Assembly (NCBI GenBank): GCA_036172245.1
Contig: JAYWIR010000054.1
Span: 1 to 64,000 of the forward strand
Direction: 5' to 3'
From: Raillietiella orientalis
Taxonomy: Eukaryota
DNA length: 64,000 nt
In this document: piece after piece, positions 1 to 51,095 of the stretch
How the letters are laid out: each line of letters begins with the position of its first letter
Position numbering within the stretch: the first letter of the stretch is position 1
Notes under the pieces: model-generated
Seen by the model: the letters and a program-made list of their open reading frames with translations, nothing else
The model's database searches: none
Told to the model about the DNA's origin: nothing
Position numbers and translations under genes: made by a program

Positions 1-1605
1 CGACTTCCTGGGGGGTGCCTCCGAGGAGGAGGATCCGCTTCCAGCCCCCAGATCGCACTAACCTGCGGGGGCCTTCTTCGTCGGAGCCGACCTGCGTACG
101 CCCTTGCGCGACAGGGTTTCGCGCTCGGCGAGCGTTGCTGCGAGCTCCTCCGCCGCTTTCTCGAAGGCCGCGTCTTCGCCAGCGGCGACCGTTGCCGCGG
201 GCTGCTCCGCGACCTTATCGAGCGCGGAGTCATCGTTGACGGCGAACGTTGCCGCGGGCTCCTCCGCGACTTTATCGAGGGCGGCGTCCTGGCTATCGGC
301 GCGCGTGTCTCGCGTCTCACCCTCTAAACGTAGAATGGGCTCGTCCCCGCGAGTATTTATCGCGTCCGCATCAGCTGTTCCGCGAACATTGCCGCCGGCG
401 GGCTCGGCAGGAACGGCTAAGCGTTCGAGTGCCACCGAGCATTCGCGGAGCTGCTTTTTTTTTGAAAGCGGCGCCGCTTTTTTCTTGTTGCCGGCAGTTT
501 TCTTCTCCGACTTTTCTTCTGGCATTAATTTCTTTTTTTTTTCCTTTTTGGCCTGAACCAGCTGCCAACCCTCCTCCATTTCCGCGTACACGGGAGCTCT
601 TTTCTCCAACGTCTGTACGGGAGGAAGGGAGGCTGGCAGTTATGAACGGCCGTTTTCGCGAGCTGGTCTTTCTACCAGCTTTCCACGTTTTCCCTGCGCC
701 TTTTTTGCGGCAGGGGGCACCGGGGTGGGGCGCTTGGGGCACACGCGCCGAAAGTGACCCTTTTCGCCGCATAGGTGGCACACAATGTTCGGGCACCTTT
801 TTCGTAGATGCCCTACTGCATTGCAGTAGCCACAAAATTGGCGTTTCCCCACGTACCAGAGGTCAACCGCTTCTTGGCAGACCTCCAGCTTGTGAAGAAG
901 CGCACCACACTCTTTTACTGTGATACGCGCCGCAGCTTGACCTTCGAAAAGGCTATTGTAGCCTTGGAAAATCGTGGACTTCGGCCACAACGCGTGCACT
1001 TCTCCGTGCTTTTGTAGCTGTTCTCGAAATGATGACCTAGTCATTCGACTGGAGATCCCAGTGAGATGGACCACCACCGAGCGGTCCATCGTTATCGGCA
1101 AGATCTTCCAACCATCAACGATCAGCGGGTCGGTGATCAGGTGTCGGGCCAAGGTGATATCCTTGCATACCACCTAGACCCGCTGCCCGCCGCTGAGGAC
1201 GCAGAGGCTGTCCAGATCTTTGTCGAAAATATTGGCGTTCTGCAGCGCCTTCGTAAAGGCGCGTGCAGTTCGCCCATCGAAAAGGTTGCCTACCTTGTAG
1301 ACTAGCAAGGGTTTATATTCCGCTCTCTTGTAGGCTTCCATCTCGGCCATGGCTTCCACGCTAGGCGCGGCCACCATGGCGCTCCATGACCTCGACGTCG
1401 CCGGGGACGATTCCGGGGCGGAAGCCCCTGATCCAGTAGGCTGTGGGGACGAAGAAGCCTCCATCACGCCTACTTCCATCGCGGTGTCCTCTGGCAACGC
1501 TGCCATCGAACTCCGACGATGTGGACGCACAAATCACTCAAGAATCAAAAACACTCGCTTTGCCACGCAGGCGGAGCGAAGGAAAAACACGTTTGCTCTC
1601 CACAG
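1..1605 (-). mobile_element. L1-clade LINE family B2, copy 1 (5' UTR plus disrupted ORF1; runs off the window)
   Basis: Minus-strand ORF pieces 1174-1530, 640-1173 and 58-609 encode CCHC knuckles (CGYCNAVGHLRKRC, CHLCGEKGHFRRVC). Closely matches 26089-27700 in inverted orientation. 5' motif at ~1575-1600. Confidence 0.9.
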
Positions 1606-2447
1606 CGGGGATTCGGCCAAGGGGCTCGCTACGAACGCGCGTATTTGCACGCGCGTCGTCACGAGAGGAACCCCAATGTTTGTCGCCTGGCCGAATACCG
1701 CGCCGGAGCCGAGCGACAAGCCTGGCAATCCGGGTCAGCCAGCATGCTGGATGACATGGGCCGGGAACGTTCGACCCCGTCTGCGGTACGGAATCTCGTG
1801 CGGTGTTTTTATTCCTCCCTTTACGCCAAAACAACACCCGAACATGACGCCTCGCGGCGATTGCTCATGAGTGGTTCCGTGGCGATAGGGGAGGAGGAGA
1901 GAGAAAGCCTCGATGAGCCTTTCACGACCGGTGAAATTCTCGCCGGTATCAAAATGCTCAAGAAACGTGAGGCGTTAGGGGAGGACGCCTTGCCCGCGAA
2001 GTTCTTTCAGAGTTTCGCGAAAGAGCTGGCCCCCCTGGTGCTCCAGTTGACAAGGCGAATCTGAGACGAAGGCGATGTTCCCGCCTCGTTTCGGTCAGCC
2101 AGAGTGAGGCTCCTTCCGAAAGGAGGAGACCTCAGGAAACTTTGCAACTGGCGTTTGATCACGATTATGAACACGGACGGCATGTTGATCGCCGGGCTGT
2201 GGGCGTCGCCATTGAGGCGAGTGTCCAATTGCATAATTAGCCCGGAGAAGACTTACGCTGTTCCCGGATGAAGTATGGAGGACAACCTTTTCTTCGCGAG
2301 CACATGGATTCACGCGCAGCGAAGTAAGAAAGAAGAGAAAGCAAAAATTTGCAACCCTACTTTGAGTCCGCCAGTGGGACAGGGTGGAAACCCGCATGCG
2401 GGAAAGGGGGCCTTAGCGATCGCAGTCGACCTAAATAAGGCATTCGA
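1606..2447 (+). pseudogene. LINE ORF2 fragment (linker to RT KAFD), B/B2-type; host of two insertions
   Basis: Runs from GFGQGAR through EPFTTGEI and EDALPA to AIAVDLNKAFD, with stops. Homologous to 34835-35670. Confidence 0.88.
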
Positions 2448-4798
2448 TTTTCACTTGGATTTCCCCGGGGCGTTTATTGTAAAATAAACATTCATAAAGA
2501 CGCGCAGTGACTGGACCAGTGCTCCAGCCACGCATGAAGAAACACGGAGCCTTCCCGGTCACCGGTTCGCAGACCGGTACGGTCCATCTCGGCAGCAGGG
2601 GGATAAAGGACATATAAAAAAACTAAACAAAAAGAAAAGAAGAGGTGGGAGGGTAGGGGAAGGGATCACTTTTGCTGCTGGGGCCGCATCATCCTTCTCA
2701 GGATGCCGGCAAGCTCTCTCTGCATTTGCGGAACCAAGTGGGGCCATCGCGACGCCCTCCTCAGTAATTGGGAGGCGCACTGGATGGCACCCTTATCGCG
2801 GGGTCCTCCCGTAACCGTGCTCCAAGCGACGACGATCCGCGAAGGCAGCACAGGGTTGCTAACGAGGCCGCAGGCCGAAGGGCGTCGGCAACAAAGAGGG
2901 CTTTTAAGGCGTCCCTGGGGTTGCCGCAGGGGATTCCGATGGACGCGGCAAAGCGTAACCAAAGGAGCCGAAGGGCAACACAATACACAAGGAGGTGGGA
3001 TAGGGAGTCCTGTTCCCCACACCTGACGCAATTGGGGTCTACCGCTCCCCAGATCCAGTGGTGTCGGCGGGCGTTGCAGGGGAGTCCTCAGTGCTGCAAC
3101 AAGAGAGCTGACTCCTCCCATTCTAAGGGGAGGGTGATGGTTTTCATTAGTACCGGGGGCCACTTCAAACGTTCCATGGGAACGTCGAGCAGCGCGCCTC
3201 AGCGAACATGTCCATGGGGAGGCGTACACGGGGTGGAAGCGTTAGTTAGTTGACCCGTCTTCCACTCTCCTATCTTCTTCTCCTTCTCGGAGATTGTAAC
3301 TGTAACCTCCCACTTCGCCTCAACATCGCTGTCCAGATCTTCTATAAGGTAAAGCAGCGCAGCAGCGAGGGGGGTTCTTCCTGCCCACGCTCTCTTCTTT
3401 GGATCCTCCAGGATCTCGCGGTGCGTGCAACTTCTGTAATCCTTAAACAGGAACCTTCGTTCCTGTTGGGAGCGTTGCATGCCGAACAGTCCCCTCGTTC
3501 GAACGGTTTCCTGCAACCAGGCACTACCGTTCAAAGGGCGACAGGTGATCAATCCTGGGTTCTTCCGGTACAGCGCAGCCACCCTCCGTAGCTGGAGTCC
3601 GCATCGGTTGATGCGGCGACGGAGTGCAAGAAACGACGTCAGTCTCGTCTTTCCGGTGGCTTGCTGAAAAAGGAGACGTGCAGGGACGCACCAATAGGTG
3701 CACCACAACTCTGCAACAAGTGCCGACATTCGGAACTTGAGCTGAAGCTCCAGCAGCTCCAGCGTCAGGAGGCCCAGACCACCGTCCCGACAAGGAGCGC
3801 ACAAGTCGTTTAAGCAGACATGGGCTCTCTCGTTGCCACAAAGGGCGATACGGAGGAAGTCCTTTGTCCGCTTTTTAATCCTCTCTGTGGGGAGGGGAAA
3901 AACAACCAGGGGGCGGAAAAAAGGAGCCGCGAACGTGTTCCAAACCGCGGCCCGTTCAGGCAGGAAAAACCTGCCGCCTCGGAACGGTCCGATCGCCGTC
4001 TCTACTTTTTGGAGGCAGCAGGACCACGCTTCCGCAGGGGAGTAGTCCCCCAACGGCACACCAAGGTACTTGAAGTACCTTACCGTGGGATCCCCAAACG
4101 GACCTAGTCCTGCTGCCCTGCCCACGCCGCACCAACTGGCATCACGGACGACTTCGCCCTGTTCACCGTAAGTCCGGTTCCCCGATGCAGCAGGTCGAAG
4201 AACTCCTCGACCGCCGCAGCCGGGGTGGACATAGGAAGCAGCAGCAGAAGGTCCTCCGCGTACGCTGAAACGGCCGGCGTACCTGCACAGTCGTGCTGCA
4301 GGTGCGCCAGAGTTCCCCTGTACGCTCTCAGTACTAACTCAAAGTAGATACTGAAGAGCAAGGGGCTCAGGCTGTCTCCCTGCCGCATCCCACGCCGCAA
4401 CGGCACGCCGTGCACGGTCTGCCCCCTAAAAGAAACGTTGATGAGCGCGTCCCGCCAGCTGGACCGCAGATAGGCCACTAATGAGGCCGGAAAACCCAAG
4501 CGTTCCAGAAGCTCTAGAAGGAGATTCTGGTCGCCGCAATCGAATGCTTTCCGCAAGTCGATTGCGACCGCAAGGGCTCTCTCCCCCACCCGACCATCCG
4601 TCCCTATGCCGGCGCACGCACCGGAATTCTGGCCGCGCACCAAGCTCCTTTTTTGTTGGAGCTTTAGCCAGGTGGAAGCGTGGAACAGGTTCGCCTCCAT
4701 GCTTCGACCGGGAACAGCATATGTCTATTCCGGGCTGATGAAGATGTTGGCAACCCGTCCCAGACGCTCTGCCCAAACCTTAGCGAGCAACGTGGCGT
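2448..4798 (-). mobile_element. LINE family A, copy 2 (RT to 3' end, disrupted)
   Basis: DLRKAFD, GMRQGDSLSPLLF, YAED and YLGVP motifs. 3' UTR and terminal hairpin at 2448-2480. Inverted near-copy of 12390-14743. Confidence 0.92.
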
Positions 4799-4960
4799 GC
4801 GGACGTGTTTTTTCCGCGCTCCTCTGCGCCTGTTGTAAAGCGTTCTTTTTCGTTAGTGTTTGTGTGTGGAGCATTTGCGGTGTCCAATGGCAGAAATGCC
4901 TGAGGACACCGCGATGGAAGTCGCGGGGAAGAGGATTGTTTTTCTCCCCAACCTTTTGAG

Positions 4961-7083: not shown

Positions 7084-9175
7084 ATTGTCACCCGGGTGCG
7101 CCGGGGCGTTTATTATAAACTATCCGGGAACAGGGTTCCCGGACAAAGGGGAAAACAAGAGACGAAGGGGGTAGGATCCCCGACACGCAGGTCGGTGTGC
7201 CAAAAGTCCGGAACGGGAGGGAAGGGACCACAAACACACTACTATATAAAAAAATAAAAGAAAAATATGGAGGGCAGGGGACAGGGGTCTTTGGTAAATC
7301 CGTTCCTTCCTTTCAAAACCGGCGATGGATGCCGGCGATCTCTCTCCTTACGCCCTGTGTCAGATGGGCCCACTGGGCAGCCGACGACATGTTTGCGCTG
7401 GCTAATCCGGTGGGCTGACGAAGGATGGCCAGCTTCTCCAACTCTCGGTGGGCCTTGTCGATGGCGCGGGTGCAACACACGGTTGCAACGACAGCACCCA
7501 ATGACAGGCCGCCTGGCGTGAAGAAGCGGCGCATCAACTCCCTCGCGGTGTCCCCCTGATGCAGGAGAGCTGAGGCCAGCCTCCGCCAGAATCCTAGAAG
7601 GGCACCGCAGTCCAGGAGCAGGTGCGGGAGCGTTTCCACTTCCCCGCACCGCTTACAGTTTGGGGAGACGACTCCCCCGGAAACAAGGTTCGTGCGCTGG
7701 CTGGAGTGAAAACCCCAATGCACCAGCATCATCACATCCTGCTTCCACGAAAGGGGGAACACAGAAGTGTTCAGACACAAGGGAGGAACCACAAGTTCTT
7801 CAAGGGGCACACTCAAGTGTTCGCTCCACCGAAGGAGTCCCTTCGGAACGTGGCGAGGTGTGGCGGCGTCCGCCAGCTCGCAAGTCTTCCAGCCGCCAAT
7901 AGGTCGCGTTGTTCCTGCGATGGTGCAGGCGACCTCCCATCTCGCCGGTTCGCAACTGTCATCTCTTGCCCTGAGGGCTGACAGTGCGTCTTCGAGGGGG
8001 GTGACGGCCAGGCGGGTCCACTTCTCCTGGCTGTTGCACTCCTCATCCAACGTGCAGTACGGGGAGAGGTGAGCGCAACGGAGTTCCAGGAGGGAAACAT
8101 CCTGGTGCTTTGCCCAGCCATGCAACGGTTCCTGCCGCCAGGCTTGAAAGTTCGTTGGGCGGCAGGAGATCCATTCCTGGGCGTCCAGGAGCCGATACAG
8201 CGGTTTCAAGGGGAAACCGAAGCTTCTCGTGGCGCGCTCCGTGTGCGGCCGCAGCGACAGAAGTCCATCGCTGCCTGTGCAGCGCCGCAGAAGCAGGCGC
8301 GCGGGAGCGCACCACGGAGTGGACCAAAGGTTGGCGCACAGGGCCAACATCCGAAGCTGCACCTGCAGCTCGATTCTCTCCAGCGTCAGGATGCCTAAGC
8401 CAGCATCCCGACGCGGAGCCGCTAAGTCTTTGAGGCGGATCCTGGACCTCGCAGGTCCCCACAGAGCGTTCCTCAACAGGCTGTGCGCCTGGAGCTTGGC
8501 CGAGTAGGGGGGCGGGCAAACAAAAACCAGGGGGCGCAAGAGAGGGGCAACGAAGGTGTTCCAAATCGTGGCCCGCTCCGGCAGGACGAGCCTGCCATGG
8601 TGGAACGGGCTCAGGGCATTCAAAGCCTTCCGAAGGCAGTCCGACCACACTTCCATTGGGCTGATGTTCCCCAGCGGAACGCCCAGATATTGCACGGAGG
8701 AAGCGGTCGGGATCTCCAGGCGGATCCAGTCGGACTGCCCCTCCCACGCTGCACCAATAGGTAGCACCACGCTCTTGCTCCGGTTTAAGCTCATGCCCGC
8801 TCCCCGGCGAATCAGCTCGAAGAAGACCTCGAGAATGGACGCAGGGGTTGTCGTGGGTAAAAGGAGAAGGAGGTCGTCAGCATAGGCCGCCACGGACGGC
8901 GTTCCTGGACAAGAGCTCGGCAGGTTCGCCGGCGTCAGCCTGAAAGCCCTCAGCACCAACTCAAAGAAGATCCTGAAGAGCAACGGGCTTAAACTGTTGC
9001 CCTGCCTGATGCCCCGCCGCACCGGCACGCCGTACAAGTGGCATCCGCTTAAAGAAATGGGAATGCGCGCGTTGCGCCAGCAAGCGCGCAAATAGGACAC
9101 GAGGTGCATCGGGAGACCGAGGCGTTCCAGTAGCTCCAGCAGGAGATTCTGATTTACGCAGTCGAACGCCATGTG
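7084..9175 (-). mobile_element. LINE family D, 3' part (RT from AFD to 3' end)
   Basis: ORF 7313-9172 (619 aa) with GIRQGNSLSPLLF, YADD and CKRCGEVETLPHLLLDC. Terminal hairpin at 7084-7114. Confidence 0.93.
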
Positions 9176-9269
9176 CGCTCCAGGGCGGACGTGTTTTCTC
9201 GGTGCTCCTCGTGCCAGGAAGTCTCCCCCAGTGCAAGCGTCGTGTGGTTCGGTGGTCGATCAGGTAGCG

Positions 9270-10945
9270 ATGCCTGACGCGACCACCAGGGATAACCAGG
9301 GGGCAGCGGCAACGCCGCCCCCAGAGGCGATGGAGAGCCAGGGGGCGGCGGCAACGTCACCCCCAGAGGCGATGGAGGTGGGGGCGTCCGCCCCCACAGA
9401 ATCCGTCCCCGCTGCAGCGCGGGCGTGGAGCGCCGTTGTGTCGGCGCCATCGCCTGCAGCCGTGGCGGAATTGTCGGCCTATGTGGAAGAGGGGTACAAC
9501 CCCTCATTGTTCTACAAGGTAGGCAATTTATATCCTTTAGAGAGCGCGCGCGCCTTCTCGAAGGGCATGCGCGCTCTCGATGTGAAAGAGGAGGAGCTTA
9601 GTGCTATGACCATCCGCAGCGGGAGTCAGTACGTTGAGGTCATCTGCAAACATGCAGAGCTGGCCCAACGACGGCTTAAAACCCCCGTTGTGATGGGGAC
9701 GCGAAGGCTCCTCCCCACTACGGCGGACCGCAGCATGGTGGTCCACCTGTTAGGCGTGACCGCGCGAATGCGCAAAGAACAGGTTCGCGCCGCTTTGGAA
9801 CAGTTTGGAACGGTCCACGCGCAGTGGGCGAAAGTTAGTTCTTTCGAGGACTACACGGGGCTGCAACACGGCCTCACTGCTGCGCGCGCGACCGTTCGGG
9901 AGGGCTGCATTCTTCCCCACAAACTGGTGGTCGAAGGCGAAACCGTCGACCTCTGGTATGTGGGGAAGCCGAAATACTGTGGCTTCTGCAATACGTCGGG
10001 CCACCTCAAAAAGAGGTGTCCCAATGTGCAGTGCCAAGTATGCGGCACAATGGGCCACACGAGGGAGGTGTGCTCAAAAGCAGCAGTGCGGGTGGTTTCC
10101 AAGAGAAACCTTAAAAAACGCGCCCGGCTTCTGCAGAAAAGGCTGGCGGCGAAAGCTGCCGCGAAGGCTGTGCCACCCGCGCCCAAGAACCAGGCCGCAC
10201 CCGAGGCCCCGGCGACCAACGTCGAAAAAGTTGAGGGAGCCGGCCAGGAGACTGGGTGGCAAGTGGCAACGGCCAAAAAACCAAAGAAGGAGAGGAGGAT
10301 GGAGAAGAAAATCGCCTACCAACAGAAGAAGAAAGAGCAGGGTAGCGCGATAATTAAAGAGTGCAGCGTCGTTGTCGAACGCGTTCTCGATGTTGCCGAA
10401 CGCTGCCGGAAAAACTCGCCGCTACCGACGACCTCCCCTCTGTTGAAACAGTCAACAGCGAGGGGAGCGAGCCGGCGGCGGCGTCCGTCATCGACACCAC
10501 CATCGATGACGTAGCCTTCGCGCGAGCCGCGGAGGAGCTGGCAGCTTCGTTGCAGCCAGAACCCTCCAAGGCTGGCAAGAAGGCCGTAAGGCGTCCGGCC
10601 TCCCCTCAGGAGTCCCCCACTTCCGACACCGGGGTGGAGGCTGGAAGCGCAGCCTCCGTTTCCACGGCACTGCGCAAGAAGGCTGGACGTAAGTCCACAA
10701 AGCCAAGGAAGCTCGTCTCCCCCGTTGAAGGGGAAGAGATGGCTTCCGCAAGCGAGGGTGCCATCAGCGTGGGAAACTCTCGGGACCCGTCGCCCGAGAG
10801 ACTCCCACGCGCGGACACGGAGGGGATGGAGGGGGTGGAGGCCGAACAGGTGCCTTAGGTGCCTGAGAAGGCCGAAACCCCCATGGACATCCCGCCCGCC
10901 TTGCAAGAGGAGGGCTTTCCCACACCTTAATCTTCCCAGCAGTAA
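9270..10945 (+). pseudogene. ORF1 of A-1 (frameshift near 10400, premature stop)
   Basis: CGFCNTSGHLKKRC and CQVCGTMGHTREVC. Continues in ORF 10361-10858 and ends in a TAATG overlap with ORF2. Confidence 0.85.
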
Positions 10946-14526: not shown

Positions 14527-14743
14527 TCCCTTCCCTTACCCTCCCAACTTTTCTTTTCTTTTTTGTTTTGTTTTTTTGTTTTTCCCCCTTCCCCCTGCTG
14601 CCGTGGTGGACCGCACCGGTCTGCGAACCGGTGACCCGGCAGGCTCTGTTTCTTCGTGCGTGGCTGGAGCAATGGTCCAGCCACCGCACGTCTTTGTAAA
14701 AGTTTATTTTACAATAAACGCCCCGGCGAAATCCGGGTGAAAA

Positions 14744-34108: not shown

Positions 34109-34421
34109 TCATTGCCCTACCCTCCATAAACTAAAATTGTATTTTCTTTTTACACCCGCGTCCCCATAGGCTCCGGAACATTTTAGGTGCTCATCGTATA
34201 AATCCCCGTGAGTACGGAGCCTAACCAAAAACCCGTTACCCTTCCCTCCAGTTTTTGATTTTTGTTTGTTTCCCCTCATTCCCCCCACGCTGCGAGCGGT
34301 TTGTTTACCAGGCCTGCGTGCCGGTAATTTTTCTGTGTTCTCTGTCGTTCTATTGGTTGGGGACATTGTCCCTGACCAGTTTATTATTATTAATAAACGC
34401 CCCGGCGTGACCGGGTGATAA

Positions 34422-36480: not shown

Positions 36481-36484
36481 GAAC

Positions 36485-39400: not shown

Positions 39401-40693
39401 GCCCTTGCGGCGGAATTGTGGGACACGCCTTGGTGCGTTCCAGCACGCCTCCTGGCCCAACGAGCCTGCGGATTCGACGGACTTTTGTCGTTTCTGCTGG
39501 CACGCGACCGCAGAGAAGCACACGGCTGCTTAATCCTGCGTCGCATGGAAGTTGCGGTACGGGAGAACGCCTGGATCTCCTGCAGCCCAGGGAACTACTC
39601 TGCATGGCTGCACGAGTCAGTGTCCACCTGGGTAAAGATCCACGTTTCGGCGGGCACAAGAAACACTTGCCTGCAAAGGCACGCCCGCTGGAAACTGCAG
39701 GAGATCGTGCAGTCCCACGAAAAGCGCATGTGGGCTTTGATAACCCCCCTTGCCCCAGTCCTGCCCCTCCTCATCGACGCCAGGGACAGTAGGGAGCTTG
39801 GGAAATGGAACGTGTCCTGCACTATTGGAGGCAGGACACAAACGATTATGGCGTGGACATCTCGGCAGCTTGCGGACGCTGCGACGCCGAGAGTCCCGCC
39901 CAACGGAATTCGACGCTGGGGCGAGCTAGTCGGACTATCTCCGGAGGAGATGAAGTGGCCCCCGGCTTCCTGGAACAGTGGATCCCTCCCCCTGAAATGG
40001 CAGGATGTGGCGTTGCTTGTGGTCCTCTGGGGACTTCCATTCAAAGCACGCCTTCATCACACAACCCGGGGGGCTGTGGATCCTTATTGTGACCGGTGCG
40101 GGGAAAAAGAGACCTTCCCCCACCTTCTCATCGAGTGCAGTGCCATCCGCCCTTTATGGGATCGCCTTACGGCGATCCTGGACATGCGCGGATGCGGCCC
40201 AAAGGACGTTTTTAGGCTCCTCTTCCGTAGTGACGCCTTGTCCCCCCCCTCTTCTGTAGCAGTCCTCTGCTGCATTCGAGGGATCGTGGCGGCTTGGAAC
40301 GCCACCAGAAGAAGACGTCAGCCAACCGGCAACGCCTTACGGTTCACTCGCCTATTCGTCCGAGACGTCTGCAAGTGGCGCCACTTGGGCGCAGAGAGGA
40401 CTCAGCTTGTACGGATCCTAAATAGGATCTAGAGGACCTATCCGCGCGCACGGTGATCCCCTCCCTGCCCTCCCATTCCCGAAACGTTTGCTCCCTCCCA
40501 TACTTCAACTATTTGTTTGTTTTTTGTTTTTTTTGTTTTTTCTTTCCCAACCCCCGCGGATCGGATGGACCTCTCCGGCATAGCGCCGGTAAATACCAAG
40601 CTGTTTTGTAGTGGTGGACCTTTGGGTTCACCACGCGACAATCCATTGTAATTTTATTCTTTTGAATAAATGCCCCGGCATATCTGGGTGAAA
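36485..40693 (+). mobile_element. LINE family C, copy 1 (ORF1 tail, intact ORF2, 3' UTR)
   Basis: ORF1 C-terminus (KKALRRPA...) to 36866, then ORF2. 3' hairpin at 40665-40693. Confidence 0.93.
36875..40432 (+). CDS. Intact LINE ORF2 polyprotein: APE endonuclease + reverse transcriptase + CCHC finger
   Basis: 1185 aa with WNVNG, LLQET, NLYAP, GDFN, IDH, SDH, PGEDG, WRPI, DLHKAFD, GIRQGDSLSPLLF, YADD, YLG and CDRCGEKETFPHLLIEC. Confidence 0.96.
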   Translation: MRGLASCRRLRITCWNVNGLRDDGKRRDVAAILRDFDLVLLQETHVLRPGDVQEIERIAGGRLLWRNGTDNSCGVAFLLKPTVDNSLRSARVDGDGRVGQLVFKWSDSIVLVVTNLYAPVSSHRAEERTAFFETLRRDWLAEAGVRRAHLIAGDFNLRLLAGAPSGRAQLVNELCAAMHARNLLAGDAGRDRNIDHIFLDNHLCTRVGTRGTLPAELSDHPRLVLELHPRNKGPPLKTWRLPGDWLRLAGAAEHLRCFLRGFQLHTLADWDEMKCSVREFCDQFPLERFPPGFGEGVRNERAYLQARRYSRRPDVRRLAEFKAEAERQAWQSGSACLLDHQGQERSSPAQVSRIVREFYSSLYAPLTPERPFAQRLLPDGAPALKEEDRSRLAEPFTMAEIISAINRLKRRKAPGEDGLPAEFYHRFAPELAPLVLRLSTLIREHGEVPASFWSAKVRLLPKSGDLRNIGNWRPITVVNADAKLYAKLWAERLGRVAASVVSPEQTYAVPGRTMEANLLLGSSWWQLRQRVAQDGQGSLAPPSDQEDRAEGGMDSAGAFAVAVDLHKAFDCVDQDLLLELLERMGFPAVLQSYLGSCWRNASINIRFSGRHVYGVPIRRGIRQGDSLSPLLFSIYFELVLRAYRVTLATLPSSYAGTPAVSAYADDLLLLLPGSTPASALEDFFELLRRGTGLEVNRAKSSMVFVGSAWAGRSDWIRLGIPTDRCLKYLGVPMGDFCAAEAWSDRLQKATLATGPFQESKLYLQERAAVWNAFAAPLLRPLLFVCSAPYFICKRAAGLLRTVLWGKGRSRVRLKGLCAPRKDGGLGVLTLERIELQLRFRTLALAAELWDTPWCVPARLLAQRACGFDGLLSFLLARDRREAHGCLILRRMEVAVRENAWISCSPGNYSAWLHESVSTWVKIHVSAGTRNTCLQRHARWKLQEIVQSHEKRMWALITPLAPVLPLLIDARDSRELGKWNVSCTIGGRTQTIMAWTSRQLADAATPRVPPNGIRRWGELVGLSPEEMKWPPASWNSGSLPLKWQDVALLVVLWGLPFKARLHHTTRGAVDPYCDRCGEKETFPHLLIECSAIRPLWDRLTAILDMRGCGPKDVFRLLFRSDALSPPSSVAVLCCIRGIVAAWNATRRRRQPTGNALRFTRLFVRDVCKWRHLGAERTQLVRILNRI

Positions 40694-40699
40694 ACGTGG

Positions 40700-41177
40700 C
40701 CGTAGTGACGCCTTGTCCCCCCCCTCTTCTGTAGCAGTCCTCTGCTGCATTCGAGGGATCGTGGCGGCTTGGAACGCCACCAGAAGAAGACGTCAGCCAA
40801 CCGGCAACGCCTTACGGTTCACTCGCCTATTCGTCCGAGACATCTGCAAGTGGCGCCACTTGGGCGCAGAGAGGACTCAGCTTGTACGGATCCTGAATAG
40901 GATCTAGAAAACCTATCCGCGCGCACGGTGATCCCCTCCCTGCCCTCCCATTCCCGAAATATTTGTTCCCTCCCATACTTCAACTATTTGTTTGTTTTTT
41001 GTTTTTTGTTTTTTGTTTTTTTTCTCTTTCCCATCCCCCGCGCATCGGATGGACCTCTCCGGCATACCGCCGGTAAATAACAAGCTGTTTTGTAGTGGTG
41101 GACCTTTGGGTTCAACACGCGACAATCAATTGTAATTTTATTCTTTTGAATAAATGCCCTGGCATATCCGGGTGAAA
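40700..41177 (+). mobile_element. Tandem 5'-truncated family C copy (~480 bp 3' end)
   Basis: Near-identical repeat of 40225-40693, including the terminal hairpin. Confidence 0.9.
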
Positions 41178-41179
41178 AC

Positions 41180-42897
41180 GTGGCCGCTTCCGTGGTGAGT
41201 CCCGACCAGACCTACGCTGTTCCCGGACGAACCATGGAGGCCAACCTGCTCCACGCCAGCTCATGGTGGCAGTTGGGACAACGCGTTGCTCAGGACGGTC
41301 AAGGGAGCCTTGCGCCCCCCTCTGACCAAACAGATCGGGCAGAGGGTGGGATGGACTCGGCGGGAGCCTTTGCCGTCGCGGTCGATTTGCACAAAGCATT
41401 CGACTGCGTCGACCAGGATCCCCTTCTGGAGCTCCTGGAACGCATGGGTTCCCCTGCCGTGCTTCAATCTTACCTGCGCTCCTGCTGGCGCATCGCGTCA
41501 ATCAATATTGGTTTCAGCGGCCGGCACGTGTACGGCGTGCCAGTGCGTCGCGGCATACGGCAGGGTGACAGCCTGAGCCCCTTGCTCTTCATCATCTACT
41601 TCGAGTTGGTGCTGAAGGCATACAGGGTAACTCTGGCAACCCTGCCGAGCTCGCGTGCCGGCACGTCTGCCGTGTCGGCCTATGCAGACGATCTTCTGCT
41701 GCTGCTTCCCGGGTCCACCTCGGCGAGTGAGCTCGAGGATTTCTTCGGGTTGCTGCACCGCGGGACGGGCCTGGAGGTGAACAGGGCGAAGTCGTCGATG
41801 GCTTGTGTTGGCTCGGCGTGGGCTGGACCGTCGGACTGGATCCGCTTGGGGATCCCCACGGGCAGGTGCTTCAAGTACCTTGGCTTTCCGTTGGGGGACT
41901 TCTGTGCAGCAGAATCTTGGTCCGAACGTCTCCAAAAGGCAGCGTTGGCGATCAGTCCGTTCCAAGAAAGCAAGTTCTACTTTCAGGAACGGGCCGCGAT
42001 GTGGAACGCCTTTGCGGCCCCCCATCTTCGCCCCCTACTTTTTGTGTGCCCCGCCCCTTATTTTGTCCGAAAAAGAGCAGCGGGCCTCCTGAGGACAGTC
42101 CTTTGGGGCAAAGGGAGGTCCCGTGTGAGGCTCAAAGACTTGTGCGCCCCACGTAAGGACGGAGGACTTGCGTGAACTACAACTCAGATTCAGAACGCTC
42201 GCCCTTGCAGCGGAACTGTGGGACACGCCCTGGTGCGTTCCAGCACGCCTTCTGGCCCAACGTGCCTCTGGACATGGCGGACTCTCTTCGTTTCTCTGGG
42301 CTCGCGACCGCAGACAGGCGCATTGCGGCTTTCACCTGCGTCGCATGGCCGTTGTGGCTCGGAAGAACGCACGGATCTCCTGCCTTCCTGGGAACCACTC
42401 GGCATGGCTGCACGAGTCAGTCTCCTCTTGGGAAAAGATCCACGTACCGGCGGGTACAAAGAACACTTGCCTGAAAAGGCACGCCCGCTGGACGCTGCCG
42501 GAAATCGTGCAATCCCACTATCAGTTTCTGTGGGTCTTTATAACCCCCCTTGCTCCAGTGCTGCCCTTTTTAGTAAACGCCAGGAAGAGCAGAGAGCAGG
42601 GAAAATGGACAGTGTCCTGCACCATAGATGGTAGGACACGAAAGATCGAGGCATGGACATCTCGGCAGCTAGCGGACGCTGCGACGCCGAGTGTCCCGCC
42701 TAACGGAATTCGACGCTGGGGCGAGCTACTCGAACTATCTCCGGAGGAGATGAAGTGGCCCCCGGCGTCCTGGAACAGTGTATCCCTTTCCTTGAAATGG
42801 CAGGAGGTGGCGTTGCTGGTTTTACGCTGGGGTCTACCCTACAAAGCATGCCTCTCTCACTGCACACGGGGGGCTGTGGATCCTTATTGTGACCGGT
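41180..42897 (+). mobile_element. Third tandem family C copy (RT fragment, truncated at both ends)
   Basis: Homologous to 38360-40097 but more diverged. KAFD and YADD present. Ends at DPYCDR. Confidence 0.9.
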
Positions 42898-43551
42898 CCG
42901 CAGGAGAGGCGCGCGACTTTATCGATCGGATTCGCGCGCCTCCACATCGCGTGCACTGTGGCGAGCACCTCGAGCGCAACAATGATGTCGCGGTCCGTTA
43001 TTCTCGGCCGAATGCCCGAGAGCTGGACTACGAACGATTGGTCCAGGGACGTGGGGACGACCTCCTTACCCCTGATTTTAAGGGGCGTTCGCAGTAGGCG
43101 TTGTACGAGGGCTGCATCTTTGCAGTGCACCTCCCAATGGCCTACCGCGCTTACTGGCATAATTGCCAGGAGATCGTCCTTTCGGACGCATACGCTTTCC
43201 AGCTCGCTCCAGAGCTAATTGCCCGTCCCATCCCGGTACGCGGCACTGACCTTGTAGGCCAGAGGGGGGTTGTAGCCGCTCGCGGCGTACGCCCGCAGCT
43301 CTGCCTCGTCGGTTGAGGCTCCGTGGGCCGCCTCTGCCTTAGCAGCAACGGCGAAACTTCTCGCTGGAGACGAGGTACGATCGGTGGAGGCTTCCACTCG
43401 TCACGAAGGTCCTGCGACGCAGGGGGATTCCTCCACCTCCCTTTTGGGAGCACTGGCTTCATTTTTAAATGAAAAATCACACCACACCCAAAAGGAACAG
43501 CCGCAAAAAGAACACCAAAGACGGAGCGTAAGAATGCACGTCCGAACAATA
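42898..43551 (-). mobile_element. LINE family D 5' end and ORF1 N-terminus
   Basis: 5' motif ttcggacgtgcattcttacgctc at ~43545-43523. Encodes ELRAYAASGYNP, WEVHCKDAALVQRLLRTPL...RLSCG. Confidence 0.85.
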
Positions 43552-43810
43552 GGGAGGCCGGCTATGGTACAGGTGTGGGAGACCGAAAACTTTGCGGTGT
43601 GGCCTACCTGCTTCGGCCAGCGGTCGAGGCCGCTGCTCGGGGCGTGCGGTTCGAGATGACGGTCGTGTCGGCCAGCTGACTCTCAGGTGGTCCGACTCGA
43701 TCGATCTGATCGTCACGAACGTGTATGCACCGAGCGGCGCGGACCTGATGGGCAGGAGGGCGAGGAAAAAGTTTCTTCTTGCCCTCCGGCGCGACTGGCT
43801 GACCGAAGCA
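43552..43810 (+). pseudogene. A-type endonuclease fragment starting at GGRL
   Basis: GGRLWYRCG...CGVAYLLRP...NVYAPSG...RRDWLTEA. Confidence 0.85.
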
Positions 43811-43814
43811 TGGG

Positions 43815-45321
43815 AGGCTCCTCCTGCCGGAGCAGGCCGCGATATGTAACACCTTCGTTGCCCTCCTCTAGCGCCCCCTGTTTTTTGATTGCCCGCCCCC
43901 CTACTCGGCGAATCTCTAGGCGCACATCCTGTGCAGGAACACTCTATGGGGTCCTGCGAGCTCCAGGATACCCCTCAAAGACTTGGCGGCTCCGCGTCGG
44001 GATGCTGGCTTAGGCATCCTAACGCTGGAGAGAATCGAGCTGCAGGTGCAGTTTCGGATGTTGGCCCTGTGTGCCAACCTTTGGTCAACTCCGTGGTGCG
44101 CTCCTGCGCGCCTGCTTTTGCGGCGTTGCACCGGCAACGACGGACTTCTGTCGCTGCGTCCGCACACGGAGAACTAAACAACAAGTTTGGGTTTCCCTTT
44201 GAAACCTCTCTACCGGCTACTGGCAGCCCAAGAATGCATCTCCTGCCGCCCAACTAACTTTCAAGCCTAGCGGCAGGAAACGTTGCATGACTGGGCAAAG
44301 CACCAGGATGTTTCACTCCTGGAACTCCGTTGCGCTCACCTCTCCCCGTATTGCACTGTGGATGACGCCTGCAACAGCCAGGAGAACTGGACCGGCCTGG
44401 CCCTCACCCCCCTCGCCGACGCACTGTCAGCCCTCAGGGCAAGAGATGACAGCTGCGAACCGGCGAGATGGGAGGTCTCCGGCACCATTCCAGGAACAAC
44501 ACGACCTATTGGCGGCTGGAGGACTTGCGAGCTGCAGACGCCGCCACGCCTCGCCACATCTCGAAGGGACTCCTTCGGTGGAGTGAACACTTGAGTGTGC
44601 CTCCCGAAGAACTCGTGGTCCCTCCCTCCTGTTTGAACACTTCTGTGTTCCCCCTTTCGTAGAAGCAGGACGTCATCATGCTGGTGCATCGGGGTTTTCA
44701 CTCCAACCTGCGGACGAACCGTGTTTCCGGGGGAGTTGACACCCCAAACTGTATGCGGTGCGGGGAAGTTGAAACGCTTCCGCACCTGCTTTTGGACTGC
44801 GGTGCCCTCCAAGGACTTTGGCGGAGGCTGGCCTCAGCTCTCCTGCACCAGGGGGACACCGCAAGAGACTTGATGCGCCGCTTTTTTACGCCAGGCGGCC
44901 TGTCTTTGGGTGCTCTCGTTGCAACCGTGTGTTGCACCCGCGCCATCGACAAAGCCCACCGAGAGTTGGAGATGCTGGCCATCGTTCGTCAGCCCATCGG
45001 ATTAGCCAGCGCAAGCATGTCGTCGGCAGCCGAGTGGGCCCATCTGCCACAGGACGCAAGGAGAGAGATCGCGGGAATCCATCGCCGGTTTTCAAAGGAA
45101 GGAACGGACTCACCAAATACCCCTGTCCCCTGCCCTCCATGTTTTTATTTTGATTTTTTATAGTAGTGTATTTGTGGTCCCCTCCCTCCCGTTCCGGACT
45201 TTCGCCATACCGACCTGCGTGTGGGGGATCCCACCCCCTTCGTCTGTTGTTTTCCAATTTGTCCGGAAACTCTGTTCCTGGATAGTTCTTAATAAACGTC
45301 CCGGCGCACCCGGGTGACAAA
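43815..45321 (+). mobile_element. LINE family D 3' part (second copy), followed by target remnant and a D 5' stub (45336-45363)
   Basis: Inverted homolog of 7084-8590. CMRCGEVETLPHLLLDC. Hairpin at 45292-45321. Confidence 0.9.
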
Positions 45322-45363
45322 AAGCCGCCCTCCTCCATTGTTCGGACGTGCATACTTACGCTC

Positions 45364-47400
45364 AAAAGAGGGGAAGGCGGCCAGGCCCATGCGCCTCTCG
45401 CGTGGATCAACGTTTATTTCTGGCGCTCACCAAAGTAGCGTTCTGTCATGGAATTCTGTGGAGGCGCTGAAAGAGCGTGGCCGCCAACATGAACGATGTC
45501 CTGCGTTCTCTCCATGCTTTTATTGACTGCGCGTATTCACCTGGAGCTCCTTGTTTCCCGCCTTTTTGCATTTCCGTGGTTTTCAATGCTTTCTGAAGCA
45601 ATATTATCTTCCGAAAGACGGTGACCGGAAAACCGTCAAGCGCCAAAGCCGTGTTTGCGTGGAAGAAGAGGATTCACGAGTTGGGGAAGGAAGGGAGTTG
45701 ATTTCTCTTCCTGTGTTGGTGCACGGGATCGGAAACAGCTGAGATTACCTTCTCTTTGTCATGGAATGGGCAGCTCCTCTTTGTTCCATGTACACCCAGG
45801 AGAAAACGGCGGCATTTATGACGCTCTGTCTTCTAATTTTGGGGTTCTTTCGACATGGAATTATAAGTAGGCGCTGCAAGGGCGTAGGCAATCGAGAGCC
45901 TTCTTTCGTGAACGCTCTTCTGGCGCCTCCCACATAGTGCAAGAGCTCACTATGGCGCTGGCGTTGTCTGCAGAATGGCGCATTCCGTAATGACTTTTTT
46001 GTCTCCCGCTGTCGTTGTGCAGATTCTTTCCGTGCAACGACGCTCTGCATTGCACGCAGGAAGGCGCCGGCATTTGTGGCGCGTGCCGATGGTACGAAGC
46101 AGAGGTGTTTTCATTTGGATTCTATTGCGGCTGCGTAATTTAGGTCTGTCGCCCGGGTGTCTTCTATTCTTTGTGATGCGTAATCGTAAGATTGGTTTCC
46201 TTGACCCAGGCTTCGACCCGCAGTGATGATCTCGTCTCCTCGCGCCTCTTAACTCTATAGGGAAGGAGAACGCTTCTACTTCTTGTCGCCTGCGGTTTTC
46301 TTTCGCCCTTGCTCTATGGTGTTACCACCGTTCCGGTGAGGTGGCATGGTTTGGAAGTGCTTTTGTGGTGACGCTGCTCTTAGGCAGTCGGTGCTTCCGA
46401 ACACACGGTCGTGGTTGATGCACCTTTTCAGAGTGCAGCTGAAGTTCTTGCTGCAATGCAAAGTCATCTTGGATGGTACGGAGCAAAAAACTGTCCCGAG
46501 TTTCGCGGCATAAATCCCTTCTTTTGTGAACTCAGAAGAAACGTTTACCACTACAGTCATCAGTGTGCAGTATTTCTAAAGAATTTCCTAATTTGTGGTT
46601 CTCCATTTGAGTGGTCACCTTACTCAACATGCGGTTGCTGCCTCCACGGTAGTAGATGGGTGGAAAGCGACGAAAGGTTCGTTCCTTTTGGCTGCACACC
46701 AACACGTACAACTCGTTTCCACGTCTTCTAGAACAGGTAGTGAACTGCCTGTGGTCTGCAGTGCTTCATGGGTCACGTTGACGTTCTGGAAGACGTCGAT
46801 CAGCAGACGGTGAAGCGCGAGAGACTCCTTTTCGTGTGATTGGAAGATTCACGCGTTGACGATGAAAAGTAAGCCGTTTTTGCTGCTTTTTGGCGTGTCA
46901 AATCGCATGCAGCTGAGGACACTCACTTTTCGTCGCATCGAGAGCTGCCTTTCGTTCGTTGCAGAATCGGCATTAACCGGCGCCATGTCCTTTGATTTAG
47001 GTCCATCCAATCGCTGATTCGACGTCTGCACGCAAGAGATGGTACACCCTCAAAATGCAATTAATTTGAAGGAAGTTTCTTGACTGCGTTGGCTGGTGGT
47101 CACCGCATTGCTGCGCGCGTTGGCCCGTACTTGAGCTATCATTGTGAACGCGAGTTACTCGTCATCGCCTCCGTACTGCTGAAAGCTGAGTGCGCGTTTT
47201 GCCAACTAGGAGAGCTAAATTCCATGCATACATCAGTCGCATGTCTCTTTGTACATGTGACGTCACTCGATTGGGCGACTTTGAGCTTCTAGTATCCCTT
47301 ATATGATGCGGAAAACCGCCTGGGGGTACAGTGTGGCTCCGAAGAGAGTGGTGCCTCTGTAAAGAGAGGAACTGTCCCCTCTTCCGCCGACGCCGCAAAT
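45364..47400 (-). other. Lower-GC degenerate segment, possibly an old unrelated L1 ORF2 remnant
   Basis: Minus-strand peptides ALDGFPVTVFRK (cf. PGxDGxPxEF), TVVVNVSS and HDRVF occur in EN-to-RT order. No long ORF. Confidence 0.35.
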
Positions 47401-47439
47401 GCTAATGGACGGAGGCAGCTGTATGAGTGACATCACCAA

Positions 47440-48000
47440 ATCGTAGAGCACCACTTGGTGCGTTCACGCCCGCTTTCTTGCCAGGCGTGTCTCCAGGACG
47501 CAAGGACAAGCATCTTATCTTCTGTGCTCCGTCCAAAAGATGGGAAGATGCGGTCTGCTCCTTCGACGCATCTCCACCTTGGCTAAGGAGATTGGCTGGA
47601 TGGTATGCAGCCCCGCCAACTCCTCCACATGGCTGGCGGAGACTGCTGGCACGTGGGCGAAGATACATGAGAGGAGCCACGAAAGGTAGAACCGTTTGCG
47701 AATCGGGTTCTACGCCCGCCGCACTCTGCGTGAAATTCTTGAACTTCCACCGAGTTGCACGTGGACGGAACGGACACCTCTTGCAACGGCGATGCCCTTT
47801 CTCCAAAGGGCGCTTCACGAAAGCCGGCAGCCAAGGTGGCAAGTCTGCTGCCCTATCGCAGGCAGAGAGAAGATATTGAGCGGCTGGACCATGGGAGAAC
47901 TGACAGATGATACGAAGCCTAGTGTCCAGCCGCGTGGTTCAATAAGATGGGACGAGCTGCTCGGCATTCGATTGGATGACCTGAAGTGACCCCCGGCAAA
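47440..48000 (+). pseudogene. Degenerate post-RT ORF2 fragment
   Basis: YARRTLREILE...RTPLA...GWTMGELTD...RWDELL...LK*PP resembles the C-termini of the other ORF2s. Confidence 0.7.
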
Positions 48001-48004
48001 CTTG

Positions 48005-50630
48005 CGGCAAACCTGCGCCGGTGCCGCACGCGTTTTTGGTTAGCGCCCGTGAGCGAATCCAAGAACAGTTGTTGGAAGTGTGGAAGTGCGGCCGTTGGAA
48101 GGCAGAAATGCCTGAAGACGCCGCAGTACCTGCGACGGGAGACGTGAGGCCCACGTCTCCCCAACCTATGGAGGTGGGGTCATGCCCCACCACAAAATCA
48201 GCCCCCGCCACCCCGGCGAGGGCGTGGAACAAGGTGGCCGCGGCGGCTCCGCCGGACGTGGCTGCTGAATTGCAAGCCTACATAAAGGAGGGCTGCAACC
48301 CAGCCCTCCTTTATAAGGTGGGAAACTTATATTCTCCGCTTACAACGCGGAAATTTGGTGATGCCATCCGTAAGATGGGAATTTCTGACGAGGAGATTCT
48401 ATGCTTCTCGATTCGAAGCGGCGAGCAGTTCGCGGAGCTGATCTGCAGAGATGCAGCGCTCACGCACAAACTGCTCTGCACGCCCGTTCCGTTCGATGGG
48501 CGGAATCTCCTCCCACACACGGTGGATCACTCCATGGTGATCCACCTAACCGGTACAACGATGCGGATGAGCGACGAAGCCATCCGCACTGAAATCAACA
48601 AGTTCGCGGAGATATACGCGATGTGGTCGAAGCCCAACGCCTTTACTTATCGAGGCGCATTCAGTGGGCGAGTTGCCGCACGCGTAACTCTCCGCGAAAA
48701 CAAAAACTTCCCCACAAGCTGGAGGTCAACGACGAGCTCGTCGACCTCTGGTACGTGGGGAAAAAAAAATACTGTGGGCTGTGCAACACATTCGAGCATC
48801 TTAAAAAGAGATGCCCGGATGCCATATGCCCAACCTGCGGCGCGAAGGGCCACACTAGTGCTGTGTGCCCGAAAAACGCCGCGACAACGCCTTCAGCCCC
48901 TTCGACAAATGAGGAGAAGAAGGCATAAAACCAAAAAACAAGCAACCAACAGCCGACCTCAGAAGAAGTCGTGCACAAGGAGCAGGAGACTTCTGAGCCA
49001 ACTGCCGACGAGGAAAACTAGAAAGTCGTTTTAAACAAAAAAGCAAAAGAAACACAAAAAAAAAAAAAAAAATATCTACAAAAAATAACAAAAATCAGAA
49101 CGCGAGCGTTCCCAAAAAACCCGCGGTCGGCAAACCAAAAATTTCGCCGCGCGAGTCCATAAAGGAATGCCGCGTTACAATCGAGCGCGTTCCGTCGATC
49201 GAGTGTCGATCGGCGAACGCGACTCCCGCAACCGTCGCGAACGCCGCGGAACCGCCGCAGGAATCCTGCGACAAACACGCGCGCAGCAGCGACGAGAAAA
49301 ACTTCGCGAAGCCGGCGGAGGAACTCGCGGCCACCTTAATGCAGCCGCCTAAGGCTGCAAAGAAGGCCGTCAGACGTCCGGCGGAGATAAGGGCCCGGAA
49401 GTTTCCGGGTCCGAGGCGGAAGCCGGAAACCCTCCCACCGTCGCACTTCCGAAGAGGAAGGCGGGCCGGAAGTCGCGCAACCCTATGCGCGTCGCTCCCC
49501 CTCAGGCTGAGGAGGAGGAGATGCGCTCGGATAGCGCAGAGGCGATGTCCGCGAGGTAGCGGGATCCCTTCATGGATAGCATCCGGTCGGACCTTCCTAT
49601 CGACCTCAGTCCGACTGCCGACGTTCCGGTCGTTGGGGGAACGCCACCAGCGCAGATGAACAACGACCAGCCGCCTCCCGAACAGGAGGCGGCAATACAC
49701 ACGCCACCACCATCACTAGTATGATGCGTGGAATCGCCTCTTGCCGGCAGCTGCGTATAGCCTGTTGGAATGTCAACGGGCTGCGTAGCGAAAGCAAGAG
49801 GCGTAGCGTGGCCGACACCCTGCGACCTTTCGATCTGGCACTTCTTCAAGAGGTGCATGCCCTCAGAGCAGAGGACGTCCAGGAAATCGAGAGGCTCACA
49901 GGGGGGAGGCTACTTTGGCGTGGTGGAGGAGACCACTGCCGCGGAGTGGCTTTCCTGCTGAAGCCGGCCGTCGCCAATGCGGTGCGCAGTTCACAGTTCG
50001 ACGAGGAAGGTCGAGTCGGACAACTTGTCCTTAAGTGGTCCGAATCGATCGACCTCGTAGTCACGAACCTGTACGCGCCCTGCACCAGCCACAGGCGCAC
50101 AGAACGCACTGCGTTCTTCGAAGCCCTGCGGCGAGACTGGCTGGCCGAAGCAGGCGTGCGGCGGGCGCATCTGATAGCGGGAGACTTCAACGTCCGCCTG
50201 CTGTCGGAAGCCCCCGACATACGAGCACAATTGGTCAACGAGTTGTGTGCGGCTATGCACACAACTCGTTGACCGATGGCCACCGATGCAACTTGTTTGC
50301 CGATGAAGCCGGGGCGAGAAGCAGAATCGACCACGTGTTCCTCGATAACCACATGTGTACGCGGGTGGGGACTCGAGGAGCAATTGCGTCGGAGCTGTCC
50401 GATCACCCTCGGCTAGTGATCAACATTCATTCGCGCGACAGAGCTTCACCCTCCGAAGCGTGGCGCCTGCCGGGGGACTGGTTGCGACTCGCAGGAGCGC
50501 GCAAACATCTGCGCGCATTCCTGCGTAGTTGCGAACTGCAGACTCTCGCTGAATGGGACAAAATAAAACGCTCAGTCCGAGAGTTCTGTGACCAGTTTCC
50601 CCTCCATCAACTTCCTCCAGGTTTCGGCGA
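48005..50630 (+). mobile_element. LINE family G, copy 1 (ORF1 and endonuclease, disrupted)
   Basis: ORF1 from ATG 48108 (CGLCNTFEHLKKRC, CPTCGAKGHTSAVC). ORF2 from 49721 with WNVNG, GDFN and SDH. Ends at LPPGFG. Confidence 0.9.
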
Positions 50631-51095
50631 TGCCACCCGGATACGCCGGGACGTTTATTAAAAAACATTTCAACGGTCAATACAGAACGTGGTACAAGGC
50701 TCCACTGACGGCCACGGAATGCCGGAACTGCCGGGACACCGGGACGCAGCCCGGTGTGGCTCTCCTCGGCAGTGGAGGGGAATGGGGGAAAGAACAAAAA
50801 TAAAATAAAAGAGAAAAACAAACCACAAAAAAAAAAAGTTTGGAGGGCCGGGAAGGGATCACAGAAAACTGCTAGGAGCGCCCATCCTTTGCAGGATGCC
50901 TTCTAGTTCCATTTTCAGTATTCCTAGATGGGGCCATCGGGTAGCTCTCTGCAGGAAGCGAGAAGCATACTCGATGACATCCCTCACGATGCAGTCTTCA
51001 TTTTCGGCATCACTCCAGGCCGCCACGATACCACGAATGCAGCAAAGTGCTGCCAGGGCTGCGGCTGGACTGAGGGCGTCCCGCACGACCAGCAC
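50631..51095 (-). mobile_element. LINE 3' end (probably family B2)
   Basis: DALSPAAALAALCCIRGIV...RWPHL, a T-rich UTR and hairpin at 50631-50659. Family assignment is inferred from the target site. Confidence 0.8.

Follow-up and report, generated by a model that had tools for sequence, protein, structure and literature searches.

Probable site-specific insertion of the LINE family B2 antisense to conserved ORF2 codons of other LINEs in a 64-kb window of Raillietiella orientalis

Introduction

The locus studied here raises the question of whether a long interspersed nuclear element (LINE) can take particular codons of other LINEs as its insertion site. It is a 64-kb stretch of Raillietiella orientalis DNA (contig JAYWIR010000054.1, positions 1 to 64,000; hereafter the window), nearly the whole of which consists of retrotransposons lacking long terminal repeats (non-LTR), with a G+C content of ~58%. 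The system in question is the LINE family B2 together with the LINE copies, referred to here as hosts, that its ends adjoin. Known site-specific LINEs use as their targets rRNA genes, telomeres, small RNA genes, microsatellites and, in one instance, a DNA transposon, and Zepp-type elements pile into their own copies. For the present window a sequence-only reading had proposed that B2 targets, in antisense, the PGFG(E) codons in the linker of the second open reading frame (ORF2) of its hosts.

Results

The junctions were read directly from the sequence. Three hosts are broken within the PPGFGEG codons (residues 317-323 of the 1212-aa reference ORF2), which lie between the endonuclease (42-247) and the reverse transcriptase (RT; 488-759) of that protein. 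All breakpoints fall at residues 318-322 and the hosts, F1, C3 and G, are distinct, in agreement with the three hosts and one site claimed before. An unoccupied reference target is found at 37742-37762 (+ strand), in the endonuclease-RT linker of an intact C-family ORF2.

The first junction belongs to B2 copy 1 (1-1605, - strand), which comprises a 5' untranslated region (UTR) and ORF1 region and runs off the window leftward; its true 5' terminus at 1605, ..CTGTGGAGAGCAAACGTGTTTTT, fits the family-wide 5' motif. The stretch 1588-1630 reads ..CGTTTGCTCTCCACAG up to the junction, where the reverse-complemented B2 5' end stops at 1605, and CGGGGATTCGGCCAAGG beyond it, with the GFG codons of the host at 1609-1617. 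This host, F1, is a B2-like ORF2 fragment of residues 318-597 (1606-2447, + strand; residues 319-597 by tblastn), which starts at R-G-F-G codons (CGGGGATTCGGC, 1606-1617) and stops at the KAFD codons with a family-B copy. The second junction lies in C3, a C-family LINE with ORF2 residues 319-1212 and a 3' end (23152-26088, - strand; 88.9% identical to 37747-40690), which is cut at its PGFG codons. Here 26060-26110 reads ..CCCTCGCCGAATCCCCG and then TTGTGGAGAGCGGACGTG, the last host base being 26088 and the first B2 base 26089; 14 nt of C3, TCGCCGAATCCCCG (26075-26088), adjoin B2, and GCCGAATCCCCG adjoins the B2 5' terminus at 26088/26089. The insert is B2 copy 2, whose first part (26089-28514, + strand; 5' terminus, ORF1 and ORF2 residues 16-183) is broken at the GDFN codons by element D, and whose second part (34423-36494, + strand; ORF2 residues 181-871) has its own PGFG site (34832-34846) intact. 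Both of the B2 5' ends in the window (2/2) are thus at the same PGFG nucleotide, antisense, in hosts of different families, and the positions proposed for them, 1605 and 26089, proved correct to within one base.

The third junction is a minus-strand 3' end in host G, a LINE with ORF1 and ORF2 residues 1-322 (47985-50630, + strand, from tblastn and sequence; 70.6% identical to C at 36489-37758). Host G ends in CCAGGTTTCGGCGA (50617-50630), and 50600-50665 reads ..CCTCCAGGTTTCGGCGA followed by TGCCACCCGGATACGCCGGGACGTTTATT, with 50630 as the last host base; from 50631 onwards, directly at the 50630/50631 boundary, comes the reverse complement of the canonical 3' terminus AATAAACGTCCCGGCGTATCCGGGTG plus GCA. 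That this end adjoins the same codons, as had been claimed, could be read directly, and its proposed position was likewise correct to within one base.

At both B2 junctions an open frame runs from the antisense B2 5' UTR into the host ORF2 (1432-2064, + strand; 25504-26253, - strand), reading ..KHSLCHAGGA.EKHV.SPQRGFG..; it is probably a by-product of the G+C-rich sequence. The peptide across a B2/host junction (P0009, residues 1-75), used as a protein query, found no other junctions.

The two 5' junctions are separate events, since the B2 sides (1-1604 against the reverse complement of 26089-27689) are 93.6% identical over 1604 nt and the host sides (1605-2307 against the reverse complement of 25387-26088) only 66.5%; segmental duplication of one junction was ruled out by the same comparison. 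The hosts resemble different elements of the window: C3 near its junction is 93.7% identical to the full-length element 36794-40432, and F1 is 79% identical to 34835-35672. Two insertions placed at random in an ORF2 of 3636 nt would agree in site (within 2 nt) and in orientation with a probability of ~7e-4. When 12 random events were simulated 200,000 times, at least four same-orientation pairs within 15 nt occurred in ~5e-4 of the simulations, whereas at least five coincident pairs are observed (three within the B2 trio, B/F2 and D/D'). The reuse of sites is genuine and lies far outside what chance would give, coincidence being excluded at ~1e-4 or below.

The 5' and 3' junctions are complementary in geometry. 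On the host sense strand, the 5' junctions show the insert 5' end and then CGG GGA TTC GGC (CGGGGATTCGGC), and at the 3' junction the upstream part of the host ends in ..GGCGA before the insert 3' end. The latter, at 50631, lies 14 nt further on than the junctions of the B2 5' ends, which agrees with the prediction for a staggered cut. Because of this complementarity, the 50631 junction can be matched to those of the B2 5' ends as the second half of one kind of event, with a target-site duplication of ~14 bp, TCGCCGAAwCCnnG in B2 orientation. Such junctions are what a single antisense insertion would produce if the cut were staggered by 14 bp, the duplication being deduced from different copies.

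The insert at 50631-51130 (- strand) is a candidate B2 3' end. It is the 5'-truncated 3' end of a B-group LINE of ~500 bp, with ORF2 residues ~1136-1212, a 3' UTR, the canonical terminus and a GCA tail; it is distinct from B and J, nearest to B by bit score (~72% over 333 nt), with C and J further off. Among the families themselves, B, B2 and J are mutually 70-75% alike in DNA, and B2 is nearest to B (72.9%), then to J and C. The window holds no complete B2 copy, as the sequence-only reading had stated, and nothing of B2 beyond ORF2 residue 871. There is no overlap between B2 and the 50631 element because copy 2 stops at that residue and copy 1 leaves the window. The nearness of both to B is compatible with their identity but is no proof of it, and the assignment of the 50631 element to B2 is favoured by a small margin only.

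True element ends could be distinguished from truncations by common signatures at both termini. In all 11 LINE 3' ends (11/11; e.g., 14713-14743 and 50631-50659), AATAAA and 1-3 nt precede a 5-bp stem, CCCGG/CCGGG, whose loop is 6-7 nt long; GTG follows, and after it come 0-5 A or GCA. Ten of the 11 copies preserve the stem, and compensatory changes are absent. Full-length 5' ends carry GCGGACGTGyTTTT a few bases from the junction. With these 3' and 5' signatures present, the junctions described are those of true element termini. In six of the 11 3' junctions, TCG or TCA directly follows the tail, including B, F2, E and the 50631 element, as well as C3 if TGAA is taken as its tail.

The behaviour is wider than B2, and in this respect the proposal of PGFG targeting, which is supported within the window, was too narrow: families D and B also reuse conserved codons of their own. 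Element D (28515-34422, + strand) is a full-length LINE inserted in sense at the GAT TTC AAT codons of GDFN in B2 copy 2, with a perfect 7-bp duplication, TTTCAAT (28508-28514 and 34423-34429). Element D' (52853-58577, + strand, sense), a full-length D-family LINE whose 3' half is 78.7% identical to D, lies at the same GDFN nucleotide in a B-like host and has a perfect 15-bp duplication, TTTCAACGTTCGCCT (span with duplications 52838-58592). Host E is interrupted in its KAFD codons, those of RT motif A, by the full-length LINE element B (9171-14743, + strand, antisense to its host). The insert is flanked by the duplication TCGAACGCC at 9162-9170 and 14744-14752, and its first base at the 5' end falls somewhere from 9171 to 9178. 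F2 (2448-4801, - strand, antisense to its host), a 5'-truncated B copy 89.6% identical to B, is inserted in the KAFD codons of F1 with its 3' end at the same nucleotide as that of B. The hosts E and F1 are 68% alike; duplication of a composite (1957-4801 against the reverse complement of 12389-15231) was ruled out, the inserts being 89.6% but the hosts only 68% identical. Each family with at least two observed insertions thus uses one site, i.e., KAFD for B, GDFN for D and PGFG for B2. Target-site duplications around a single insert are perfect for D, D' and B, and for B2 the duplication is deduced only from different copies. Counted over intact or occupied sites in the window, occupancy is 3/11 for PGFG, 2/~8 for GDFN and 2/12 for KAFD.

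By their endonuclease and RT the families of the window are assigned to the L1-group non-LTR LINEs. An apurinic-type endonuclease domain, an RT domain or both were found by Pfam in 11 of the 32 long frames. The intact C-family ORF2 (P0001, 1212 aa; 36794-40432, + strand) carries an endonuclease (PF03372, residues 42-247, E 1.4e-16), which aligns to L1-EN structures (E ~5e-6), an RT (PF00078, residues 488-759, E 1.3e-22) and a weak zf-RVT match at the C-terminus (PF13966, 23.7 bits against a cut-off of 27.5), where a CX2CX7HX4C string is readable in the translation. The closest solved structures to ORF2 are those of human L1 ORF2p (E 2.5e-46), with R2 trailing at ~1e-14, and the GDFN and KAFD motifs of the ORF2s in the window align with GDFN and EKAFD of human L1 ORF2p. 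A protein search with ORF2 gave seven distant matches and no close one, and an Atlas protein search with it gave generic LINE clusters only, without taxa. The conserved 3' terminus, scanned against metagenome_contigs and genome_contigs, had no match in either.

A sequencing run (X1, share 0.05) was aligned to 24001-44000 at 80% likeness, giving 561 records, 49 of which were at least 99% alike; X1 is taken to hold the same or a very close organism. At 98-99% identity, one X1 contig (33401-34440) spans the D/B2 junction and another (28486-32240) has only ~29 letters on the B2 side of the other D junction. A further contig joins 28506 to 34422, as in a B2-like copy without D, and this join is weak because its shorter side has only 21 letters. 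Among the X1 items listed (six of 377 loose ends and eight of 609 pieces) none lies at 26088 or 37747, so that no further B2 flanks were obtained from them. In two X1 contigs aligned to 34392-34423, 28 nt come after a LINE 3' terminus, and the final 14 of them match 11079-11092 in antisense of the B ORF2, near residues 72-81; with only these 14 nt matching, and not at the sites seen in the window, the loose end is read as a further antisense LINE-in-LINE junction elsewhere in that genome.

Several other junctions are less secure. Two C-family 3' ends stand in tandem (40665-41186), both on the 8-bp CGTGGCCG (40695-40702 and 41179-41186); this arrangement, C-CGTGGCCG-C2, may be read as repeated insertion at one site, at about ORF2 residue 522 of a C-like host, in sense. 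A further shared site may lie at GGRL codons, where the 3' end of E (7085) as well as the 5' end of K' (43552) is located, the link of K and K' to family E being unproven. At 43524-43562 the K' 5' terminus (- strand) adjoins the GGRL codons of a B-like fragment, and at 45291-45350 an E-family 3' end is followed by the 10 nt GCCGCCCTCC (45324-45333, antisense of GGR codons) and then by the K 5' terminus. K and K' have only ~40 nt in common, and K (45334-47450) lacks a long ORF and matches nothing else in the window.

No shared site was found for the junctions of J (15660-21189) and H, the E' 5' truncation (43810), the end of a C-like host (42920), the B2/C join (36489-36494) and the 3' flank of C3 (23147). 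H is 85% alike to B2 in the ORF2 start. Its 5' end (4799) and 59462-59809 were considered as a shared site, which was dropped because the latter replaces ~77 nt of host and the nucleotide differs. The stretch at 59462-59809 is an AT-rich sequence of ~340 nt in place of ~77 nt of a B-like host ORF2 and has a degenerate AATAAA-like 3' terminus. An ORF at 51509-52234 (+ strand) has a circovirus-type Rep domain (PF02407, E 2.9e-11) with a faint helicase start (PF00910, E 0.067), and is cut off where a 5'-truncated B-like LINE ORF2 starts (52287). It looks like an endogenous Rep fragment of a circular Rep-encoding single-stranded (CRESS) DNA virus inside the LINE nest; a weaker second Rep copy, 65% alike, is present at 62780-63440.

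Discussion

Based on the results of this study, B2 is likely to be an L1-group LINE, with an apurinic-type endonuclease, an RT and a putative C-terminal CCHC, that inserts site-specifically by target priming into the antisense P-G-F-G-E codons of LINE ORF2s, those of its own lineage included. Target-primed reverse transcription is suggested by the precise 3' junctions, the short duplications of variable length, the 5' truncations and the structured 3' terminus. The steps of the mechanism are inferred from the anatomy of the insertions. The B2 endonuclease would nick directly 5' of TCGCCGAA (B2 orientation), and reverse transcription would begin at the 3' terminus with its conserved hairpin and not at a poly(A) tail. 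The hairpin probably serves as the RT recognition element, there being no poly(A) tail to anneal. A cut of the second strand ~14 bp off would then give the TCGCCGAAwCCnnG duplication. The site is presumably read by the endonuclease and not by another domain or by RNA pairing, and conserved codons may be used since selection on the protein of the host LINE keeps the target across diverging families.

A number of observations weigh against this interpretation. The sample consists of three junctions in one 64-kb window, only three of the 11 PGFG sites there are occupied, and the PGFG site of B2 itself is empty although it fits the target core TCGCCGAATCC. No single B2 insertion in the window shows both ends, for which reason the 14-bp duplication had to be pieced together from different insertions. 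PGFG may instead be a shared hot spot, where several B-group families nick similar short motifs and the 50631 end comes from a family other than B2, e.g., of F1 or H type. There is no overlap of the 50631 element with B2 sequence, some B2-like relatives have unassigned 3' ends (F1, 79%; H, 85% in the ORF2 start), and the TCG or TCA at the head of six of the 11 3' flanks would also suit a hot spot. On the other hand, every family with two or more insertions keeps to one site, no B or D end in the window lies at PGFG, and 5' and 3' junctions offset by 14 nt suit the geometry of a single insertion; we therefore regard a shared hot spot as rather unlikely. The junctions could also have arisen other than by insertion, through recombination, inversion (twin priming), segmental duplication or mis-assembly among similar repeats. 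Within the window no host resumes past its insert: beyond the 50631 fragment lie AT-rich DNA and the Rep-like ORF and not the remainder of host G. B2 copy 2 breaks off at residue 871, where a 5'-truncated C element adjoins it, other rearrangements are present in the region, and repeat nests are difficult to assemble. However, duplication is excluded by the contrast in identity between host and B2 sides, twin priming joins parts of a single element and not different families, and homologous recombination or mis-assembly would unite similar sequences in matching orientation and would not bring a canonical 5' or 3' terminus up against antisense codons. Moreover, D, D' and B carry perfect target duplications, and X1 contigs cover the stretch at 98-99%, one of them (33401-34440) crossing the D/B2 junction. 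An origin of the junctions other than insertion is thus highly improbable.

The nucleotides next to the B2 5' ends call for some caution of another kind. The 12 nt beside both ends (1606-1617 and 26077-26088; CGGGGATTCGGC) are identical (0/12 mismatches), in contrast to the adjoining 88 nt, where the hosts are 61% alike and 34 positions differ, and C3 departs from family C at 3/12 of these positions against 4/88 beyond them (P = 0.036). These 12 nt may therefore have been brought in by B2 itself and may be no guide to what the host carried there, for instance as a short leader that the B2 RNA took from its source copy and that could have aided 5' joining by homology. Taken further, the B2 RNA would start a few bases upstream and carry a 12-14-nt copy of the target, and the end of the cDNA would anneal to PGFG near a loose nick, so that homology would set the 5' junction. 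A similar target remnant, GCCGCCCTCC (45324-45333), ahead of another 5' end is in line with this. The 3' junction at 50631, which is set by the nick, lies at the same site, though, and D and B reuse exact 3' junctions without a common leader; assisted 5' joining would supplement the specificity of the endonuclease and not substitute for it. Homology in place of the endonuclease as the determinant of the 5' junction is accordingly considered improbable, and site-specific insertion by B2 is retained as the preferred explanation.

A wider interpretation can be offered only tentatively, falling just short of even confidence. The window may sample a self-assembling LINE island in which at least three, and probably at least seven, related families parasitise each other, each with an endonuclease specific to a different ORF2 codon block (the GDFN endonuclease active site, the KAFD RT motif A or the PGFG linker) and in a fixed orientation. 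Purifying selection on each protein would keep the landing sites of the others, and the resulting network of safe harbours and mutual knock-out could build centromere-like domains of repeats only. No description of such a network for LINEs was found in the open-access literature searched. If true, it would show how repeat-only chromosome domains build themselves while sparing host genes, and would be a clear case of transposon competition through disruption of each other's catalytic motifs. The related endonucleases of B, B2 and J, with their different specificities, would form a natural series from which to learn how apurinic-type endonucleases read DNA.

Among known systems, nested clusters are formed in green algae by Zepp and ZeppL LINEs, which enter copies already present (PMC8226300, PMC3446292, PMC9940879). 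The window is like those of Coccomyxa and Chlamydomonas in having L1-group LINEs within existing LINE copies, in nested clusters with little else between, as is evident from its nesting map. The passages concerned describe one or two families per genome acting on their own copies and name no defined codon target, whereas in the window several families cross-target, each with its own nucleotide and a fixed orientation, several of the inserts being of full length. The elements studied here also differ from Zepp in their 3' end, a hairpin with 0-5 A, and the two are likened by behaviour, not by RT phylogeny.

Tx1 targets the Tx1d DNA transposon (PMC6719617), and transposons are among the targets of specific non-LTR elements, most of which are said to belong to the early-branched, Tx1 and R1 groups (PMC4640811). 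Like Tx1L and Tx2L of Xenopus and the Tx1 clade, the families of the window are of the L1 group, with an apurinic-type endonuclease and strict target specificity, the same nucleotide being reused by B2, B and D; here again behaviour is compared and not clade placement. The Tx1 clade, however, targets a DNA transposon, RNA gene or repeat, and the families of the window target protein-coding motifs of fellow LINEs. With R1, R2 and other rDNA- or telomere-specific LINEs they have in common a precise 3' junction, a fixed orientation, a short duplication and a conserved multicopy target, and the tandem C-CGTGGCCG-C2 at 40695-40702 recalls the tandem double insertions at one site in R1/R2 (cf. PMC5932611). 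Those LINEs target host genes and not another mobile element, and R2 has a restriction-like endonuclease, which the elements of the window are without. Human L1 ORF2p is the best match among solved structures, with aligned endonuclease and RT motifs, but the TTTT/AA target preference of human L1 is loose and the element ends in a poly(A) tail, in contrast to the structured 3' terminus and site-specific junctions seen here; the poly(A) tail of the L1 group was found at none of the 11 3' ends, all of which are hairpin-GTG with 0-5 A or GCA. In the open-access literature searched, which did not take in Repbase, only Zepp, Tx1 and rDNA-type cases were found, and no LINE families said to target codons of other LINEs. 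The cross-targeting of several related families, each with its own conserved codon block and fixed orientation, is probably a new variant of Tx1-like or Zepp-like targeting.

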